Program-made: the position numbers and the translations under genes
Assembly (NCBI RefSeq): GCF_000619845.1
Contig: NZ_JHUX01000003.1
Location: 1,570,064-1,602,063 of the forward strand
Reading direction: 5' to 3'
Origin: Alkanindiges illinoisensis DSM 15370
GTDB taxonomy: Bacteria; Pseudomonadota; Gammaproteobacteria; Pseudomonadales; Moraxellaceae
DNA length: 32,000 bases
Shown here: positions 1,841 to 9,535 of the stretch, one piece after another
Numbering within the stretch: the first letter of the stretch is position 1
How the letters are laid out: the number at the start of each line of letters is the position of its first letter
Notes under the pieces: model-generated
The model's database searches: none
Told to the model about the DNA's origin: nothing
Seen by the model: the letters and a program-made list of their open reading frames with translations, nothing else

Positions 1841-1909
1841 GTGTTTTTGCGCTCGTGAAGTATATGCGAGTTTCCTAGGCTCGACACCGATTTTGCGGTG
1901 TAAATATAT

Positions 1910-1938
1910 CTTGTGTCATAGCGTGCTGTTATGTCAAG
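1910..1938 (+). repeat. Cargo-island 29-bp repeat, copy 1
   Basis: CTTGTGTCATAGCGTGCTGTTATGTCAAG. It ends 2 nt from the stop codon of the NDT-like gene. Confidence 0.9.
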
Positions 1939-1940
1939 GG

Positions 1941-2873
1941 TTATTTAAGTACTATCATCTCCATAATACTAACATCTGGTACAACTGTTCTCACTAACTC
2001 TAAAAGTCTATCAAGCATAAAAGTAAAAGGTTTATCCGAAATAATATAGATACTGTTTACCTCCTTATCAGTGAAAAGAGAGTTATTTTTATTAGAATTT
2101 TCTACTGAAAGTCTTTCAAATTTCAATTTAGGATATATTGAATTTATTTGAGTTTTAAAACTTTCATATTCTATATCAGTTAAATATCTTTGTAATATTA
2201 ATCTTAAAATATTCTTTTTGACTTCAATATCATAACTTGATTTGGCTAAGTTTTGATTAGATTGATTTAAAGTAACCTTAGATAATAAATTTTCAATATT
2301 GTCTAACCGATCTAATAGATATCGTTGTGGATCATTCTCCTGAATTTGATCTCTAATAATTTTAGTACTTGAAACCCTATGAACTGGATTATCAGCTTCA
2401 GTTTGGCTCATAGCATCAACAACCGCAGCTTCTAATGCTGGTTTTAATTCTTCAGCTCCATGCATATCATTAAAATAAAAAATGGTACGTTCAGCAGCAA
2501 TATCAAATGGTAGTTTAGTACCATGCTCCGCTAAAACTACAACTGGCTTATTGGTGCAATGCCGTACTGCCAGCTCATACATGACATTGGGATTAAGCTC
2601 ACTTAAATTAGCAATTACCAAATCATCAAATAGGACACGTTCGATAACCTGGCGAGGAATTGAGCCAGCCACTGAGATTTCGTGAGCTGCAACAACATCA
2701 AAACCCATTTCCTTAAGAACAGGGCGCATTACTGCTCTAATTAGTCCATCGGCCGCCCTACGGGTTGGCGTGTTGTCTCCACCAATTGGGGTGACAATAA
2801 AGCATTTTTTCTTTTCATTAACAGCATCATCACTCATGTTTTCATTATTGGTAGCTGATTTTTTTGCAGTCAC
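1941..2873 (-). CDS. Nucleoside 2-deoxyribosyltransferase-like (TIR-related Rossmannoid) domain protein with an uncharacterised C-terminal domain; candidate defence effector
   Basis: GTG start with a GGA-type RBS 9 nt upstream. N-terminal motifs are KKCFIVTPIGG, DLVIANLSELNPNVMYELAV, NKPVVVLA and LPFDIAAERTIFY. These match the CFVIMPFG...ADLS..NPNV.YELG...KP...PFD pattern I associate with NDT-like folds. The C-terminal ~135 aa are AT-rich-encoded with no recognisable motif. Confidence 0.6.
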   Translation of the reverse strand: MTAKKSATNNENMSDDAVNEKKKCFIVTPIGGDNTPTRRAADGLIRAVMRPVLKEMGFDVVAAHEISVAGSIPRQVIERVLFDDLVIANLSELNPNVMYELAVRHCTNKPVVVLAEHGTKLPFDIAAERTIFYFNDMHGAEELKPALEAAVVDAMSQTEADNPVHRVSSTKIIRDQIQENDPQRYLLDRLDNIENLLSKVTLNQSNQNLAKSSYDIEVKKNILRLILQRYLTDIEYESFKTQINSIYPKLKFERLSVENSNKNNSLFTDKEVNSIYIISDKPFTFMLDRLLELVRTVVPDVSIMEMIVLK

Positions 2874-2904
2874 TTGCTTGTATCCTAATGATCTTTAAAA
2901 ATAG

Positions 2905-2933
2905 CTTGTTCCATAGTGTGCTGTTATGTCAAG
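2905..2933 (+). repeat. Cargo-island 29-bp repeat, copy 2
   Basis: CTTGTTCCATAGTGTGCTGTTATGTCAAG, 26/29 identical to copy 1. It lies in the divergent intergenic region between modules A and B. Confidence 0.9.
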
Positions 2934-2978
2934 ATTTGGACAGAATATTTTGATAAAACTAATAATTTTGGGGTAAGT

Positions 2979-3776
2979 ATGGCGTTTATTGGGGCAATTT
3001 TATTTTTATTCCTTATAGCCGTAGTGGTGGCTACAATAGCTGGTCTAATTAATCCAAAAACGCTTGTAAACAAGAAAAAGCCTGAACAGGTTATGAGCCG
3101 AAAACAGATTCTAGGTAGTGGGATAGCCCTTTGTTTATTGCTGGTTGCTTTGATTGGTGTAGTAGCAAGTGATGATAAGGTGAAAGTAACAACTGCCATT
3201 AACGATCCTAGCCCAGCTGCCGCAAAGAAAGAAGAACCTACTAATCTGACAGTCCAAAATAATAACAATCCTACTGAACCTGCCAGTTCTCAATCTGCTG
3301 AAACAGTCCAGCAAAACCTTGGTATAACCGCTGAAGAATTTCGGCAAAAATTTAATGCTGAACTAAAAAAAGCTGATCTATCAGAATTAAGACCTGTAGC
3401 CGAATTTGATATTAAGCAAGGTGAAAAAGCAGGTACTTTTAATGTGATGTTTGGTGATGCCTTAGGCATGATGGGTGTAGTCGATAAACAGAATAATTTG
3501 AAAAGCCTTATTTTTATGATGGGTAGAACTGATGAGGGTGAAAAAGTTGGACTAAATTTATTATTGCTTAGTTCCTTTGCGGCCCGTGTATTAAATCCAG
3601 AAGTTGAACATGAAAAAACAGCGACTACCTTAATGGGACTTATCCAAAAGGCCATGAAAGATCCTACAGCGGAAAATAATACGCATAGTCAGGTCTTTGG
3701 GAATACTAAATATTACTCATTAGCCAGTCCCTACACGGGTTTATGGGTTGGGTTTGAGCCTGTGGAGAAAAAATAA
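2979..3776 (+). CDS. Membrane protein: two N-terminal TM helices, low-complexity linker, ~160-aa periplasm-facing globular domain
   Basis: I prefer ATG 2979 (MAFIGAILFLFLIAVVVATIAGL...) to the track GTG 2916, which lies inside repeat copy 2. TM1 is followed by a KKK-rich loop, then TM2 (ILGSGIALCLLLVALIGVVA), then a P/N/S/Q-rich linker. The stop overlaps the next start (TAATG). Confidence 0.7.
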   Translation: MAFIGAILFLFLIAVVVATIAGLINPKTLVNKKKPEQVMSRKQILGSGIALCLLLVALIGVVASDDKVKVTTAINDPSPAAAKKEEPTNLTVQNNNNPTEPASSQSAETVQQNLGITAEEFRQKFNAELKKADLSELRPVAEFDIKQGEKAGTFNVMFGDALGMMGVVDKQNNLKSLIFMMGRTDEGEKVGLNLLLLSSFAARVLNPEVEHEKTATTLMGLIQKAMKDPTAENNTHSQVFGNTKYYSLASPYTGLWVGFEPVEKK

Positions 3777-4759
3777 TGATGACAGATCCAGGGTTTTTAA
3801 GTGAATTGGAGTATAGCCGAAAGCATGAGGAAGAAGTGCAACGATTAAAGGTTGAGGCTGAACTTAATCAATTTAATAAAGAAAAAGATAAGATCCTAGC
3901 CAATATAAACAGGTTGGAAAACAAATTAAGTAAAGTAAGTAAAAATTCAACTCTCATAAAGAGTATTGATAGTATTAAGCATGCTATGAATACTGAACTT
4001 AAACATCCTCGTGAAGTAACACTATTAAATCTGCTTGAATCAAGCATTCATAGTATGAATCTAGAAATTGAAAAATATGAAAATAAACTTCTTTTGGAAA
4101 ATGCCTTATTTGGAAACATTATTGCAGAATTAGCCGCAATTGAAAGGGCTTTTCAAATTTATAGAGAATCTGCATATTCATTTGAAAAATTTGTCAGGGA
4201 ACCATTTAATGTTTCTTTTACAGAAGTTTTGGAAGAATTGAGGTCATTTAGAAAATCGAGAGCTATTGCTGATAATGCGCGCACAGAAGATTTTTATAAT
4301 AAGGCTGTTGAAAAATATACTGACCTAGAAAGTATATATAGAAAATATTTTTATAATGGAGTAGCTATTCTTGCGGCTTTTACACTTTTATCTACTTTAT
4401 TTAAAAAATACTTTATTGAATATGATGTGATTAGCACAATTGATTTTTGGATAATTAAAGGTTCTGCCCTAATTATTGGAATAACTTTAATTACTTATTT
4501 TTTGAAACAGTCTACTCGTTATCAGAAACTGGCTGACCAAAACTATCAGACACAAGTTGAGTTACAAGCTTATCCTAGCTATATAGAAAGTATTCCTACC
4601 AGTGAAGCAGCTGCTATCCGTAAAGAACTGGCCCTTAAATATTTTGGTCGTGAAATCGATAAAGACAGCAGTAGTTCTAATGAATTACTCACTGACCAGA
4701 TTCAAGCGAGTACTGAGCTGGTCAAAGCATCTATAGAAATTATTAAAAATGTAAAATGA
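3776..4759 (+). CDS. Coiled-coil protein with a C-proximal TM hairpin (possible SLATT-like 2TM effector)
   Basis: About 200 aa of heptad-like, E/K/L/N-rich sequence. Two TM helices follow (GVAILAAFTLLSTLF and GSALIIGITLITYFL), then an ~80-aa tail. Translationally coupled to the upstream gene. Confidence 0.7.
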   Translation: MMTDPGFLSELEYSRKHEEEVQRLKVEAELNQFNKEKDKILANINRLENKLSKVSKNSTLIKSIDSIKHAMNTELKHPREVTLLNLLESSIHSMNLEIEKYENKLLLENALFGNIIAELAAIERAFQIYRESAYSFEKFVREPFNVSFTEVLEELRSFRKSRAIADNARTEDFYNKAVEKYTDLESIYRKYFYNGVAILAAFTLLSTLFKKYFIEYDVISTIDFWIIKGSALIIGITLITYFLKQSTRYQKLADQNYQTQVELQAYPSYIESIPTSEAAAIRKELALKYFGREIDKDSSSSNELLTDQIQASTELVKASIEIIKNVK

Positions 4760-4767
4760 ATATGCTT

Positions 4768-4796
4768 CTTGTGTCTTAGCGTGCCGCTATGTCATT
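4768..4796 (+). repeat. Cargo-island 29-bp repeat, copy 3
   Basis: CTTGTGTCTTAGCGTGCCGCTATGTCATT, 24/29 identical to copy 1. It starts 9 nt after the stop of the module B operon. Confidence 0.85.
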
Positions 4797-4865
4797 ATTC
4801 AAAAATAATTTAGTATTTTTTTGGATTGACATACTTATAAAACATTCAAAAGTCAAGGAATGACG

Positions 4866-5075
4866 ATGAAAAAAGCATTTTTATTAAGTTTAATTATTGG
4901 CATTAATCCTGCTGCTATGGCAGCAACTTGCAAAGACTTTAAGACGCATGCACAGGCTCAGGCTTATTTTGATGCCAAAAAGCCGGGTTATAAGCGACTG
5001 GATCGGGACAAGGATGGTAGCGCCTGTGACTGCTTGCCTGGTGGTAATGGGAAGAAATGTCCAAAGCGGAAGTAA
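4866..5075 (+). CDS. Secreted Excalibur calcium-binding domain miniprotein
   Basis: AAGGA RBS at 4855-4859 favours ATG 4866 over 4860. Signal peptide MKKAFLLSLIIGINPAAMAA, then CKDF..HAQAQAYF....YKRLDRDKDGSACDC, the Excalibur DxDxDGxxC(E/D) motif. Confidence 0.75.
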   Translation: MKKAFLLSLIIGINPAAMAATCKDFKTHAQAQAYFDAKKPGYKRLDRDKDGSACDCLPGGNGKKCPKRK

Positions 5076-5171
5076 CTGCTGCGGAGCAATTAAACTAATT
5101 CGTAACCATAATAGTAATGCCTATAATCGGCAGTGTCAGTAATTTTTAAAAGGTTAATTTAAAAGGATTTA

Positions 5172-7886
5172 ATGATGAACAACTTGAAATTTTCTGAATT
5201 AAAGAAAGAACTTCAAAATAAGATGCGTACTGTCAAAGATTTAGCTCGATATATAGATAAGAAGCGAGAATTACATCCGAATTATAGTATTTTTCTAGGT
5301 TCAGGTGCTTCTGTGACATCTGGCATTAAAAGTGGAGGGCAACTTGTTAATGAGTGGAGAAGAGAAATATATGAACAAACAAGTGAAAAACCATATCTTA
5401 TAAGCATCGAAGATGCGAATAAAACTCTTAGTGAGGAGGACGCTCTTAAGCAAGCTGTTCAATATCTTATTCATGAACAAGGTTCTTGGTACAATCCACT
5501 TAATGAATATTCATCCTTATTTGAAAGAAAATTTGATTTACCTTCACAACGTAGAAGGTTTGTTGAAAAATTAGTAGATGAAAAATTACCATCTATCGGT
5601 TACCTGTATCTTATCTCATTAATAAACGAAGGTTACTTTAATACAATTTTTACAACTAATTTTGATGATTTGATTAATGAAGCTTTCTACCAGTTTTCCA
5701 ATATTAGACCACATGTTTGTGCTCATGACTCATCAATAGGAAGCTTATCTGTATTATCAAATAGACCTAAAATTATCAAACTTCATGGTGATTATCTTTT
5801 TGACGATATTAAAAATACATTAAGAGAAACTGAAAGCTTAGAAACTAATACTAAAGAGAAATTTATTGAATTTTCTAAAGAAAGTGGCTTAATTATTGTT
5901 GGCTATTCAGGCCAAGATCGTTCAGTAATGGACGTAATAAATTATTTACTCCAGCAAGAAGAATATTTGAAAAATGGTTTATATTGGTGTTTTAGAAAAG
6001 ATGATGAGATCCCGCATGAAATTAGAAAAATTCTATGGAGAGATAAAGTTTATTGTATTGAAATCGAAGGATATGATCAATTTCTAGCAGATATATTTCT
6101 ACAATTAAATTGCAAATTATCTTTAACTGATAAAGATTTCCATTCTAAACGTGATAAATGTATTAAAAGTTTCATTGAAGATAATTTTAATCTAAATACA
6201 AGTGAAGCCATTTCAATGCATATTGATGAAATGAAGGCATTAAATAGAAGGCAAGATATTTCAAAATTTTTGCAACAGATAAAGGAAACAGATCTCAATC
6301 AATTAGATCAAATAGAATTTAAAAGTATGCTTGAAATAGAAACTTTGATAAAAGAAAGAAAATTTGATGAAGTTGATAAAAAAATTGATCTAAAGCTTAT
6401 GGAAAAATTAAATCCTGATCTTAAAGAAAATTATTTTAAATTAAAATTAAAAAGTTATAAAATGGCTGGAGAAACAAAAAAGGCTATAGACTTTATTGAT
6501 GAGTTAATCAGAACTGACCCTTTCAATCAAAAGTTATTAACATGGAAGTTGGATTTTTTAGAAGCATTAAAGGAGCAGATTTATACTGTTAAAGATTTTT
6601 GTGATAAAAACCAATACTCTTATACAATACGAAATAAATTAGTACGTTTACTTTTAGAATATAATGAATCCAGAAATAAGTGGCATGAAACTATTACTCT
6701 TGAAAATTCTTTAGATATTATAAATGATAGCTTAAAAATTAATTCTAGCTTAGATAATAGTGCTTATACTCTTAAGTTAAAAATATTAGATCAAATTAAT
6801 AAGAAAAAACTTAAAACTAGTCTAAAACCATCAGAGAAAGATAAATTAAATCAGCCTTTAAAGGACTTAATAAAATCTGCAGAATCAATTAATCCTATAC
6901 ATCTTCAATTCCTCGAATTAAAAAAACTCTTTGCATTAATAACTCTTGATCCATCTGATATTAATAATTATATACAAGCATGTACATTTACTAACTCTTA
7001 CGTTAATAATAAATTACAAATAAATCTTTTAGAGAAGCAAGTTGCTTTTTACAATACTTTATTATTACATAAAGATTTTAATGATATAGAAACAACTAAC
7101 AACATTGAGAAATTTTTTCTACACGCAGGCAATTATCCACATGCAAATACTAATATGATATTTATAATAGGCAAAGTTGATTTTTTAATTGATAATAAAA
7201 GAGATTTAGGTCAAGGTATCGAAATACTATATGATTTATTAGAAAATGTTGAATCTTATAGTTATATTTTAAGTATTATTAATAGAATTTGTTATGATAA
7301 TTCATCTAATAATTTAAGTCGTATTAAAGTTAAATTGGAAAGTATTAAAAATCTTATTGATCACGAAGATTATTTAATATGTTACTGCTATATTACTGAT
7401 GCAGAGAATAAAACATTAGACGCACTTAAATTTTTTATTGAGTTTTTTGAAATTCAAACAAACAAGCAGAATCATCTTATTAAATACACTTATTTCTTAC
7501 TTAAAGCTGAAAAATACGATGAAGTAATTAAGCTTTATGAAGATAATAAAAGCCTTATACGTGAACTAAGTCATGAAAATCAAGTAGTTCTATCTATAAA
7601 TCTTATTTGTGCTGAAAAGGCTAAGTATCAAGTTCTCAGTGAATCTAATAAATCATTGTTAAATCAATATAGATCTTCAAAGCCTACTCCATCAATATTT
7701 ATATGTGCTTTAGCCCTTTTAGAAGATAATCAGGCTTTTCATCATATGAAAGAACGTATCTATAAAGAATTTAGTGCATATTATGAACTGCGTAGCTGGC
7801 CAGCGATGAGTGAGAAATTTAAGAAACTATTAGATCAAGAATTTCAGAATATTACTGTAGATCCCATATCTAAGTTAGCAAGTTAA
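5172..7886 (+). CDS. SIR2_2-family (ThsA/DSR-type) NAD-binding domain fused to a ~600-aa TPR-like helical-repeat region; candidate NAD+-depleting defence protein
   Basis: N-terminal motifs appear in the order seen in ThsA/DSR SIR2 domains: IFLGSGASVTSGI (G-x-G NAD loop), IFTTNFDDLINEAF (TTN[YF]D), IIKLHGDYLFD (catalytic His) and LIIVGYSGQDRSV. The remainder is K/N/L/I-rich with TPR-like segments (e.g. AIDFIDELIRTDPFNQKLL). Confidence 0.8.
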   Translation: MMNNLKFSELKKELQNKMRTVKDLARYIDKKRELHPNYSIFLGSGASVTSGIKSGGQLVNEWRREIYEQTSEKPYLISIEDANKTLSEEDALKQAVQYLIHEQGSWYNPLNEYSSLFERKFDLPSQRRRFVEKLVDEKLPSIGYLYLISLINEGYFNTIFTTNFDDLINEAFYQFSNIRPHVCAHDSSIGSLSVLSNRPKIIKLHGDYLFDDIKNTLRETESLETNTKEKFIEFSKESGLIIVGYSGQDRSVMDVINYLLQQEEYLKNGLYWCFRKDDEIPHEIRKILWRDKVYCIEIEGYDQFLADIFLQLNCKLSLTDKDFHSKRDKCIKSFIEDNFNLNTSEAISMHIDEMKALNRRQDISKFLQQIKETDLNQLDQIEFKSMLEIETLIKERKFDEVDKKIDLKLMEKLNPDLKENYFKLKLKSYKMAGETKKAIDFIDELIRTDPFNQKLLTWKLDFLEALKEQIYTVKDFCDKNQYSYTIRNKLVRLLLEYNESRNKWHETITLENSLDIINDSLKINSSLDNSAYTLKLKILDQINKKKLKTSLKPSEKDKLNQPLKDLIKSAESINPIHLQFLELKKLFALITLDPSDINNYIQACTFTNSYVNNKLQINLLEKQVAFYNTLLLHKDFNDIETTNNIEKFFLHAGNYPHANTNMIFIIGKVDFLIDNKRDLGQGIEILYDLLENVESYSYILSIINRICYDNSSNNLSRIKVKLESIKNLIDHEDYLICYCYITDAENKTLDALKFFIEFFEIQTNKQNHLIKYTYFLLKAEKYDEVIKLYEDNKSLIRELSHENQVVLSINLICAEKAKYQVLSESNKSLLNQYRSSKPTPSIFICALALLEDNQAFHHMKERIYKEFSAYYELRSWPAMSEKFKKLLDQEFQNITVDPISKLAS

Positions 7887-7909
7887 TATTTTCTATAAAA
7901 TTTATTCAA

Positions 7910-7942: not shown

Positions 7943-8203
7943 TTATATAGCTGCATGCTCATCATTCGCGGCCTTACGCTGGGCCGTGATCTCATCATGG
8001 GTTTTAAGCTGGATGCCAGGACGTGGACAGGCGCTTGGTGAAATCTGGTGAGTGATTTCCAAATTACCGCCACAAGTAAAACCGCATAGATAATTACTGC
8101 ACTGAAACCAAAGCTGGCGCAAAAGTGGATGCGCTTCCCTGCTGCTTCGTATAGTCATTGATGCTGCACAATGTGGGCATTGAAATTTGCTACGTTGAGC
8201 CAT
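7943..8203 (-). CDS. ogr: Ogr/Delta-family zinc-finger late transcription activator
   Basis: Motif CPHC...(22 aa)...QCSNYLCGFTC gives a four-Cys pattern like P2 Ogr. Its position immediately after gene D is as in P2. Confidence 0.9.
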   Translation of the reverse strand: MAQRSKFQCPHCAASMTIRSSREAHPLLRQLWFQCSNYLCGFTCGGNLEITHQISPSACPRPGIQLKTHDEITAQRKAANDEHAAI

Positions 8204-8278: not shown

Positions 8279-9535
8279 CTATTTTTTAGATTTTTTTAAA
8301 GCAAGTAGCTCCTGATATTCCCGATTGGCCGCAATGGTTGCGGTCTGCTGGGTTTTATACAGATAGGTCAGGCGTTTTGGTGTGGTCTGATCGCCTGAGG
8401 TGACCTTTGCGGTGTTTTTACCATCCTTATAATATGCCACGATGCCTGTATAGTCGCCGCGTTCATCATCAATCAGTTCACTTAAATCATCGGCATCTGG
8501 CAAATACACTTCCAGCTCAACTGACGTGCTATAGCCATTATCGGCATCCAGTGTATGCACTACCCGTGAACCCAGCCAGATAATATCGTCAATTTCCGGT
8601 TTTAAGCCTAAAAATGATATTGGCATTTCCGGGATAAGTTCTGGCTCACCTTTGGCCAGGTTATAACTAAAAGTGCAGGATTTGCTTTTTAACCGGTTAA
8701 ATTCGGCCTGGGCAGTATGCAGTGCACTATTTTTATCGCGCTGGATGTTGCGAAGTTCCTTGGTGTTTTCATTGGACTGGCCAATGGTGACTTTCTGCTT
8801 TTCGGCCTTGTCCGGATCATAGTAATAACAGGTCACACCGCTAATATCATCTGCCCCATCAGTATCTGAAAAACGGTGGCTGTCGCCCTGGATACGACGA
8901 ATAATAAATTCTGGAAATGACACACCGCTGGCAGTCTGGCCAGTACCTTTAGGCATAAATAGCAAATTGCCATTTTTGACCGTGGCGATTGCGTCGTGTT
9001 CATCGGCGATCCGGGTGATCAGATTGGCATCAGATTCATTCTGATCGATATGAGCCAGCACGATTTTTGCCAGTTCAGGATTAACTTTAGGCGTTAGGCC
9101 CTGTTCGCCAGCAATGGCGGTGATGATGTCGCCAATGGTTTTTTTATCAAAACTACGTTCCTTTTTTTTCTTAAACGTACTTTTTAAATCCGCTGAAGCG
9201 CCACGAATGGTGATGATATCCGGTGCACCGCTATGCTCACGCTCCTTGACCAGATATTTACCTTTATAGACAAGGCCAGTATCACTCCACCCGATCCAGG
9301 CGTGGATCTCTGCCCCCTTGGGTGGAATTTCCAGTTTTCCGTCATGGTCTGACAGCTCAATGTCGATACTATCTGCTTCAATCCCACGATTATCAGTGAT
9401 GGTCATCCGCATTAAGCGTGTGGCCACCAGTGCGCCAATGTCCTTATCATTAACAACCAGGCGGTAAATTGCCTGTGGGTAGGATTCACCCAGCTGCTGG
9501 TTTACATAGGAAATAGCATTACTGACTAAACTCAT
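8279..9535 (-). CDS. D: Tail protein D (late control gene D protein)
   Basis: 418 aa. Follows U with a 4-nt overlap and is the last gene of the FI operon, as in P2. Confidence 0.85.
   Translation of the reverse strand: MSLVSNAISYVNQQLGESYPQAIYRLVVNDKDIGALVATRLMRMTITDNRGIEADSIDIELSDHDGKLEIPPKGAEIHAWIGWSDTGLVYKGKYLVKEREHSGAPDIITIRGASADLKSTFKKKKERSFDKKTIGDIITAIAGEQGLTPKVNPELAKIVLAHIDQNESDANLITRIADEHDAIATVKNGNLLFMPKGTGQTASGVSFPEFIIRRIQGDSHRFSDTDGADDISGVTCYYYDPDKAEKQKVTIGQSNENTKELRNIQRDKNSALHTAQAEFNRLKSKSCTFSYNLAKGEPELIPEMPISFLGLKPEIDDIIWLGSRVVHTLDADNGYSTSVELEVYLPDADDLSELIDDERGDYTGIVAYYKDGKNTAKVTSGDQTTPKRLTYLYKTQQTATIAANREYQELLALKKSKK

Follow-up and report, generated by a model that had tools for sequence, protein, structure and literature searches.

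Two membrane-protein genes joined by an inherited stop/start overlap in a variable hotspot of a Moraxellaceae P2-like prophage

The 32,000-nucleotide (nt) stretch of Alkanindiges illinoisensis DSM 15370 analysed here (contig NZ_JHUX01000003.1, positions 1,570,064 to 1,602,063; hereafter the window, to which all positions refer) carries a P2-like prophage in which two membrane-protein genes overlap on the + strand, namely gene A (265 amino acids (aa), 2979..3776, with ATG at 2979 and TAA at 3774-3776) and gene B (327 aa, 3776-4759, with ATG at 3776 and TGA at 4757-4759). A preliminary description had read them as a periplasmic sensor coupled to a membrane-disrupting partner. The evidence presented here leans instead, by a modest degree, toward A and B being two independent accessory genes at the promoter-proximal end of a variable, low-GC (guanine plus cytosine) hotspot of Moraxellaceae P2-like prophages, with B as a single-chain sensor and effector and A, together with a small Excalibur protein, as a separate module. 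The hypervariable cytoplasmic N-terminal helical bundle of B would then recognise a phage-derived cue, and its conserved module, a transmembrane (TM) hairpin with cytoplasmic helices, would disturb the inner membrane and so lead to abortive infection, or would block DNA entry. A, with its 2-TM inner-membrane anchor and periplasmic domain, and Excalibur would form a separate envelope-facing exclusion or conversion module.

The two genes meet in a TAATG stop/start overlap (3774..3778, +, one shared A) and lie, as had been described, between repeat copies 2 and 3 (2896-2933 and 4759-4796). The origin of this junction is best seen by comparison with the closest relative, L008/L009 (loci fetched for comparison are cited by L numbers), which is 95% identical in the repressor, 99% in Ogr and 93% in gpD, with an L008 backbone identity of 88-93%. 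The L008 island has the order TIR-like gene, A (78% aa identity), TAATG, Excalibur, and at its junction (...GAGAAATAATGAAAAAATTA) the stop codon of A overlaps the start codon of Excalibur; the window junction (...GAAAAAATAATGATGACAG) has the identical TAATG, followed by B. Alignment of the window with L008 by blastn gives blocks at 2374-3779 and 4866-5074, so that homology breaks off at 3779 and is regained at 4866, the position of the Excalibur ATG. This homology break, taken with the TAATG of L008, places an insertion of about 1.09 kb exactly at the start codon of Excalibur and identifies the A/B overlap as the inherited A/Excalibur junction, into which the B cassette was placed. The segment absent from L008 (3779..4865, +, by blastn) comprises the B coding sequence, repeat copy 3 and ~65 nt with a new Excalibur ribosome-binding site.

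Excalibur itself is a small secreted, Ca-binding protein of 71 aa (4860..5075, +; PF05901 E 2.6e-6, motif DRDKDGSACDC), and the start homologous to that of its relatives is the ATG at 4866. In L012, as in L008, A and Excalibur are joined by TAATG, A directly precedes Excalibur in L010, L012, L013, L032, L046/47 and others, and translational coupling of Excalibur to an A-type gene recurs in at least nine distinct related prophages. The GC content of B is 31%, against 39% for A. These comparisons show that B arrived by insertion and thereby inherited its TAATG coupling to A. A conserved translational coupling of A to B was not found, the same TAATG being that of A and Excalibur in L008 and L012, and the A-B pairing of the window is recent, new and atypical.

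How often the two genes meet elsewhere was determined by searching hidden Markov models of the A-type families and of the B family against the six-frame open reading frames (ORFs) of all loci fetched. These loci were B-anchored (17 from GTDB, all Acinetobacter, and 28 from IMG/VR), A-anchored, repeat-anchored or orf939-anchored (71 loci), and the counts that follow are of dereplicated arrangements, ~85 in all. B stands alone in 27 and an A-type gene alone in 20; the other arrangements are B-P (11, P being a ~457-aa protein discussed below), P-A (10, plus 1 with a gap), A-Excalibur (9, plus 1 A-A-Excalibur), B-B (2), P-B (1), B-A (1, L081) and A-B-Excalibur (1, the window). A is thus next to B in two arrangements only, the window and L081, and in opposite orders; in L081 B comes first and is followed, after a 168-nt gap, by an A-type protein with a third kind of C-terminal domain (C-domain). 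At the other 55 B-containing loci fetched, L081 excepted, there is no A-type ORF within 4-7 kb. With co-occurrence this close to absent, a dedicated A+B system is not supported, and the sensor-effector pairing first proposed mostly fails at this point.

The architecture of B gives the independent reading its functional content. Its N-terminal half (residues 1-149, 3776..4222, +) is, by AlphaFold2 and the family alignment, a hypervariable cytoplasmic helical bundle, and its conserved C-terminal module (residues 150-327, 4223..4759, +) is made up, by hydropathy, AlphaFold2 and the family alignment, of a pre-TM helix, the hairpin and a Q-rich helix bearing the motif P-x(14)-IRKELALKYFG. Hydropathy places TM1 at 4346-4402 (+, approximately residues 191-209) and TM2 at 4442-4504 (+, approximately residues 223-243). 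The AlphaFold2 model is all-helix with a mean predicted local distance difference test (pLDDT) score of 83.8; a helix at residues 109-208 continues into TM1, TM2 lies inside a helix at 221-272, and helices extend up to residue 326. The charge distribution is compatible with N- and C-termini that are both cytoplasmic and with a short periplasmic loop of ~13 residues. The earlier outline, with helices in the cytoplasm followed by a TM hairpin and a tail of 80 aa, agrees well with this model.

That the gene is real follows from its homologues, with 286 word-index matches and 234 representative clusters (50% identity, exhaustive profile search), of which 99 fall at E<1e-30; nearly all are of 300-400 aa with the same hairpin and motif, and every source with an organism name is Acinetobacter. 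Median pairwise identity within the family is 15% over the N-terminal 149 residues versus 68% over the C-terminal 178. Among 20 pairs at least 85% identical in the C-terminal half, 17 are less than 30% identical in the N-terminal half, and some pairs with 85-89% identity in the former share only 8-14% in the latter. This split between a variable and a conserved part suggests a sensor and a membrane effector in a single chain. B belongs to a previously undescribed family, hypervariable in its front half and conserved in the half that carries the membrane hairpin. The first hotspot position in P2-like prophages of A. baumannii is often taken by a B homologue, and A is absent there.

No match to B was found in Pfam, PADLOC, PHROGs or NCBIfam, nor did tblastn find one in 50,697 phage genomes. 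In Foldseek comparisons with PDB and BFVD the B model matched generic long helices (best E 0.04-0.4) and nothing at E<0.01, and a PDB sequence-profile search with the B alignment returned helical bundles only (apolipophorin III at E 0.01, XaxA at E 0.3). A match named "ACD" in 26 of 41 close homologues was set aside, being below the cut-off and located in a region nearly identical among them, so that the matches are not independent. In 39 distinct B loci, B commonly neighbours P (9), a multi-TM protein of 235 aa (7) or a BRCT protein (4), or has no neighbour. The ~235-aa protein, with a C-terminal FLELEK motif and no Pfam or PADLOC match, directly follows B by overlap or at 4-nt spacing (for example L016 6916-7623, L019 6553-7257, L023 7405-8160 and L025 6521-7282). 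Tandem B-family genes in one hotspot were seen in L023 (5257-7415) and L063.

Gene A is built differently. Hydropathy gives TM1 at 2982-3047 (+, approximately residues 2-23) and TM2 at 3108-3167 (+, approximately residues 44-63), and the loop between them (3048-3107, +, NPKTLVNKKKPEQVMSRKQ) contains six K/R residues, which by the positive-inside rule makes it cytoplasmic. A disordered P/N/Q/S linker follows (~3168-3305, +; residues 62-109 at low AlphaFold2 confidence), and then a folded alpha/beta domain of ~155 aa (3306-3773, +, residues 110-265 in the AlphaFold2 model). The model has helices at residues 2-24 and 41-63 and a domain at 110-265 with pLDDT mostly 75-91; it was computed from a 2-sequence alignment, and its TM and linker parts are poor. 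This C-terminal domain very probably lies outside the cytoplasm, and a periplasmic location is indicated because relatives with the same anchor carry another type of C-domain that is also seen behind lipoprotein signal peptides; protein P0123, for instance, is 63% identical to A over the first 80 residues and yet has a different C-domain. The topology proposed at the outset, with two TM segments, a K-rich cytoplasmic loop, a disordered linker and a periplasmic globular domain, therefore stands, as does the presence of TM segments in both proteins.

A matches phrog_23546 (function unknown) over its full length (E 1e-38), and homologues at 78% (L008) and 36-41% identity show that it is a real gene. 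Its C-domain has homologues in the skin Peduoviridae phage MF417929 and, at 36-41% identity, in five IMG/VR prophages. Searches of Pfam, PADLOC, PHROGs and NCBIfam gave nothing beyond phrog_23546, and the best Foldseek hit of the A model against PDB, B. subtilis YjgB/DUF4309 (E 0.029), falls short of significance. A viral scan with alignment A4 gave no match, its search patterns being derived from the other type of A C-domain. In agreement with the initial judgement, which recognised neither protein as part of a described system, the literature searched describes neither the A nor the B family.

The alternative closest to the original proposal is a working partnership, in which the periplasm-facing A would sense an envelope event (e.g., phage DNA injection) and signal via its 2-TM anchor to the B hairpin, so that the membrane is depolarised; we regard this as rather improbable, at something like a one-in-several chance. 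The two genes share, besides the TAATG coupling, a candidate promoter (TGGACA-18-AATAAT, 2937..2966, +), which is the best sigma-70-like site of the region at 10/12 and is a consensus match only, and they are probably co-transcribed; L081, too, has a B homologue adjoining an A-type gene. Against it, the coupling is an inheritance from the A-Excalibur junction, and the census sets 27 arrangements with solitary B genes against two cases beside an A-type gene that differ in order and in A C-domain, with A-type genes alone in 20 arrangements and with Excalibur in 9. Adjacency is also partly a matter of geometry, since 58% of the hotspots in this phage lineage (30/52) contain an A-type gene and the hotspots measure only 2-7 kb.

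Support for a partnership also comes from P, which often follows B and is built like it, with an extended helical N-terminal part, a pair of TM helices and, after these, the motif LxxLxPFIxxLxxxxxxxIHKDLIPDYFG. When the P and B families were compared by hhalign, the region of TM2 and the YFG motif aligned with a probability of 87% (E 3.7e-6), and P is on this evidence a distant paralogue of B. It is found at L006, L044, L045, L078 and L096-L144 (e.g., L044 8171-9544). Of the 52 distinct hotspots that make up the unbiased set, 30 contain an A-type gene and 11 contain B or P; all nine P hotspots have an A-type gene directly downstream, they span at least six backbone clades, and their P proteins are 36-60% identical to one another and stand next to both A-type C-domains and three kinds of anchor. 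For P alone, nine of nine is unlikely by chance against a base rate of ~0.5, with shared ancestry not fully controlled. A Fisher test of B/P presence versus A-type presence gives an odds ratio of 4.3 with p=0.09, a point against the partnership. The recurrence of P-A leaves room for a functional link of the B superfamily with A-type proteins. A broader version would take B, P and the A-type proteins as a new modular family of prophage-borne, envelope-spanning immunity modules of the Moraxellaceae, in which a conserved 2-TM "YFG" membrane module is fused to a hypervariable cytoplasmic sensor with an optional periplasm-facing partner (P-A, B-P, A-B) and cassettes are exchanged at a promoter-marked hotspot; we hold this to be a speculative and on the whole doubtful generalisation.

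Several points weigh against A and B being independent genes with B as an anti-phage protein. P is never alone in the sample, as it follows B or precedes an A-type gene (P-B once), a pattern that hints that these membrane proteins may work in combinations and so weakens the independence of A and B. Being translationally coupled in the window, A and B could also have become functionally linked secondarily. The N-terminal variability of B could reflect weak constraint on a coiled coil and not diversifying selection. Finally, no match to a known defence, abortive-infection (Abi) or superinfection-exclusion (Sie) family was found in Pfam, PADLOC, PHROGs, NCBIfam, PDB or BFVD, which means that the anti-phage role is argued from context and architecture.

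The context is that of a prophage defence hotspot. The P2-like prophage of the window has Ogr at 7943-8203, gpD at 8279-9535 and tail and head genes to ~31 kb, and between its early region and ogr/gpD lies an island at ~1900-7900 with 27-39% GC, compared with 45% for the backbone. The same site, between the orf939 homologue and ogr, yielded the 52 distinct hotspots, which are 2.1-6.9 kb long and have varied cargo; the locus is variable, conserved phage genes stand on either side and known defence systems lie inside, the cargo including SIR2, TIR-like and PARIS-type genes and weak matches to PDC-type candidate families. Downstream of Excalibur the window encodes a SIR2-domain protein of 904 aa with a long helical-repeat tail (5172-7886, +; Pfam SIR2_2 E 1e-14, PADLOC Aga_SIR2 E 1e-63 and PDC-S65 E 1e-25), whose gene has a GC content of 27%; in L027 a 41%-identical homologue lies directly 3' of a B homologue. 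Upstream of A is a TIR-like protein of 310 aa on the opposite strand (1941-2873, -; phrog_10872, with a weak TIR-effector match to PADLOC PDLC00733 at E 3e-7), and L008/L009 have a homologue (47% identical) at the equivalent place with a repeat copy on either side. PARIS-type AAA_15/AAA_21 and DUF4435 genes occupy the same site in related hotspots (L012 7447-9424). Prophages of A. baumannii encode an AbiP-like membrane protein behind the repressor gene, as well as a pair of genes that match PDC-M66A/B weakly (L002 3242-4165 and 8075-9771). Of the exclusion or abortive-infection role suggested by the preliminary description, the setting in a low-GC island with SIR2 and TIR-like genes, and with PARIS in a relative, is favourable, and the part that required a dedicated pair is not supported.

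The two genes may also have nothing to do with phage defence and instead encode lysogenic-conversion or prophage-maintenance membrane proteins (envelope remodelling, adhesion, a Ca-dependent surface function with Excalibur, or a membrane scaffold). This seems to us improbable, slightly more so than a partnership. It would account for the lack of similarity to known defence families, for A-type genes being so widespread in the lineage's hotspots as to be almost core, and for B homologues at a stable chromosomal site adjoining queA in several Acinetobacter species. It sits poorly with the recognisable defence genes elsewhere in the hotspot, with the extreme N-terminal variability of B beside its conserved C-terminal module, which is typical of molecular-conflict proteins, and with the GC content of A and B below that of the phage backbone, as expected for mobile cargo.

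The reading that we favour least, and hold to be very unlikely given the profile searches and the neighbourhoods of B, makes B a pore-forming effector of the SLATT type that responds to a nucleotide signal from the neighbouring TIR-like or SIR2 enzyme. The B model does have a 2-TM hairpin flanked by cytoplasmic helices (hydropathy, AlphaFold2), a TIR-like gene lies 100 nt upstream on the opposite strand and a SIR2 gene downstream, and the P2-like phage AC1 has a TIR + TM-protein system (PMC9122126) that would serve as a precedent. SLATT_5 matches 2 of 57 distant B members, P0305 among them at E 0.0027 over the hairpin and following helix, and RTasSLATT matches 2 of 41 close homologues at E 0.29 and protein P at E 5e-4. 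Against this, Pfam hmmscan at E<=1 gave no SLATT match for the window B or the 41 close homologues, and the best SLATT_5 score in the family is 17.5 bits versus a cut-off of 29.5. As the SLATT_5 matches are below threshold, membership of B in SLATT is not established, and the likeness noted at first is not confirmed. DUF2207_C likewise matches 17 of the 57 distant members below threshold (best E 3.5e-6), and Pfam and PADLOC searches of the 41 close and 57 distant homologues gave nothing useful beyond these sub-threshold matches. No fusion or operon with a domain that generates or senses a nucleotide signal (SMODS, SLOG, TIR, RT) was found across the 39 distinct B loci; among fetched loci a TIR-like gene accompanies B only in the window, and SIR2 only in the window and L027. 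B resembles the SLATT 2-TM effector domains (PF18160 and relatives) in its membrane hairpin, cytoplasmic helices and conflict-type loci, and differs from them in having no significant profile match, no consistent nucleotide-signal neighbour and a large, variable N-terminal domain of its own, more in keeping with direct sensing than with a nucleotide receptor. A dedicated system of TIR-like protein, A and B, resembling that of AC1, was also considered and rejected, as the TIR-like gene is found with A only in the window and L008/L009 and with B only in the window.

The repeats may reflect the way in which the hotspot acquires cargo. Each is ~38 nt long (copy 1, 1901-1938, +; copy 2, + strand, between A and the divergent TIR-like gene with its start codon at 2873, -; copy 3, +, the most degenerate, with a 5-bp hairpin TAGCG-TGC-CGCTA). 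The core, ATAGYGTGCYGYTATGTCAA, is conserved in many related prophages, with the first hotspot gene 45-50 nt downstream of it, and marks the left edge of the hotspot in L008, L010, L012, L031-L040, L045 and L046 (Moraxellaceae P2-like). On the - strand copy 1 reads TTGACA, 18 nt, CAAGAT and ends at the start of the isrK-like and C4 RNA matches, and copy 2 reads TTGACA, 18 nt and a weak -10, 23 nt upstream of the TIR-like start codon; in L010 the TIR-like gene is absent and there is a single repeat copy. Because of these positions next to the C4/isrK-like RNAs and the TIR-like gene, the repeats look like duplicated leftward promoter regions, and they were probably brought by cassette insertions. 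An RNA or attC-like hairpin role was rejected, since folding z-scores are weak (-2.3 to +0.1) and the position fits a duplicated promoter region better. The C4 antisense RNA itself is at 1712-1797 (-; Rfam RF01695, E 2e-12, 69.8 bits where the gathering score is 45), and the sub-threshold isrK-like match at 1820-1901 (-, 35.6 bits) comes directly before it. Together they suggest a P1 immI-type antisense-controlled antirepressor operon in this P2-like prophage, with a small orf at 1517-1657 and an orf at 939-1520.

If B is indeed a sensor and effector in one chain, its nearest conceptual counterparts are the CapRel-type fused toxin-antitoxins, single-chain immune proteins that combine a variable sensing domain with a conserved toxic domain. 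B is like them in being prophage-borne and in joining a conserved and a hypervariable module in one polypeptide, and unlike them in its unrelated fold and in a presumed effector that is a membrane hairpin and not an enzyme; sensing by its N-terminal domain is putative. RexA and RexB of phage lambda divide such a task between two proteins, a cytoplasmic sensing part and a 4-TM channel. B likewise would have a cytoplasmic sensing part and a membrane part and be expressed from a prophage, but both parts are in one chain and the proteins are not homologous. Superinfection exclusion offers a third comparison, T4 Imm being an inner-membrane protein of this kind. Like P22 SieA (PMC10883804), A and B are small prophage-expressed inner-membrane proteins from accessory loci, and the A-type domain is exposed to the periplasm, where incoming phage components pass, whereas only ~13 residues of B face it. 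No sequence or fold similarity of A or B to known superinfection-exclusion families (Imm, Sp, SieA, Cor/Llp and others) was found in PHROGs or by Foldseek against PDB/BFVD at E<0.01.

At the level of the locus, the island resembles the defence hotspots of P2-like prophages (Rousset et al. 2022, PMC9122126) in being short, highly variable and low in GC between conserved phage genes, and in holding known systems (SIR2 and TIR-like, with PARIS in a relative) beside uncharacterised small membrane proteins. It differs in position: gpA and gpQ flank the hotspot of E. coli P2 (the old/tin locus), and the Moraxellaceae hotspot is found between the C4-RNA/antirepressor-type early operon and ogr/gpD, where the conserved ~30-nt repeated element marks it. 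The Moraxellaceae P2-like hotspot, distinct from that of E. coli P2, is a new place for the mining of defence genes, and the conserved ~30-nt element makes it easy to locate. The junction of A and B illustrates that an inserted cassette can inherit translational coupling, and such cases could mislead screens in which overlapping genes are taken as the sign of a system. If B-type proteins are single-chain immune proteins, they would make up an undescribed family of 234 clusters at 50% identity for which Pfam, PADLOC and PHROGs have no model, and the B family would be a natural library of swapped sensor domains in Acinetobacter, a genus of active phage-therapy work.

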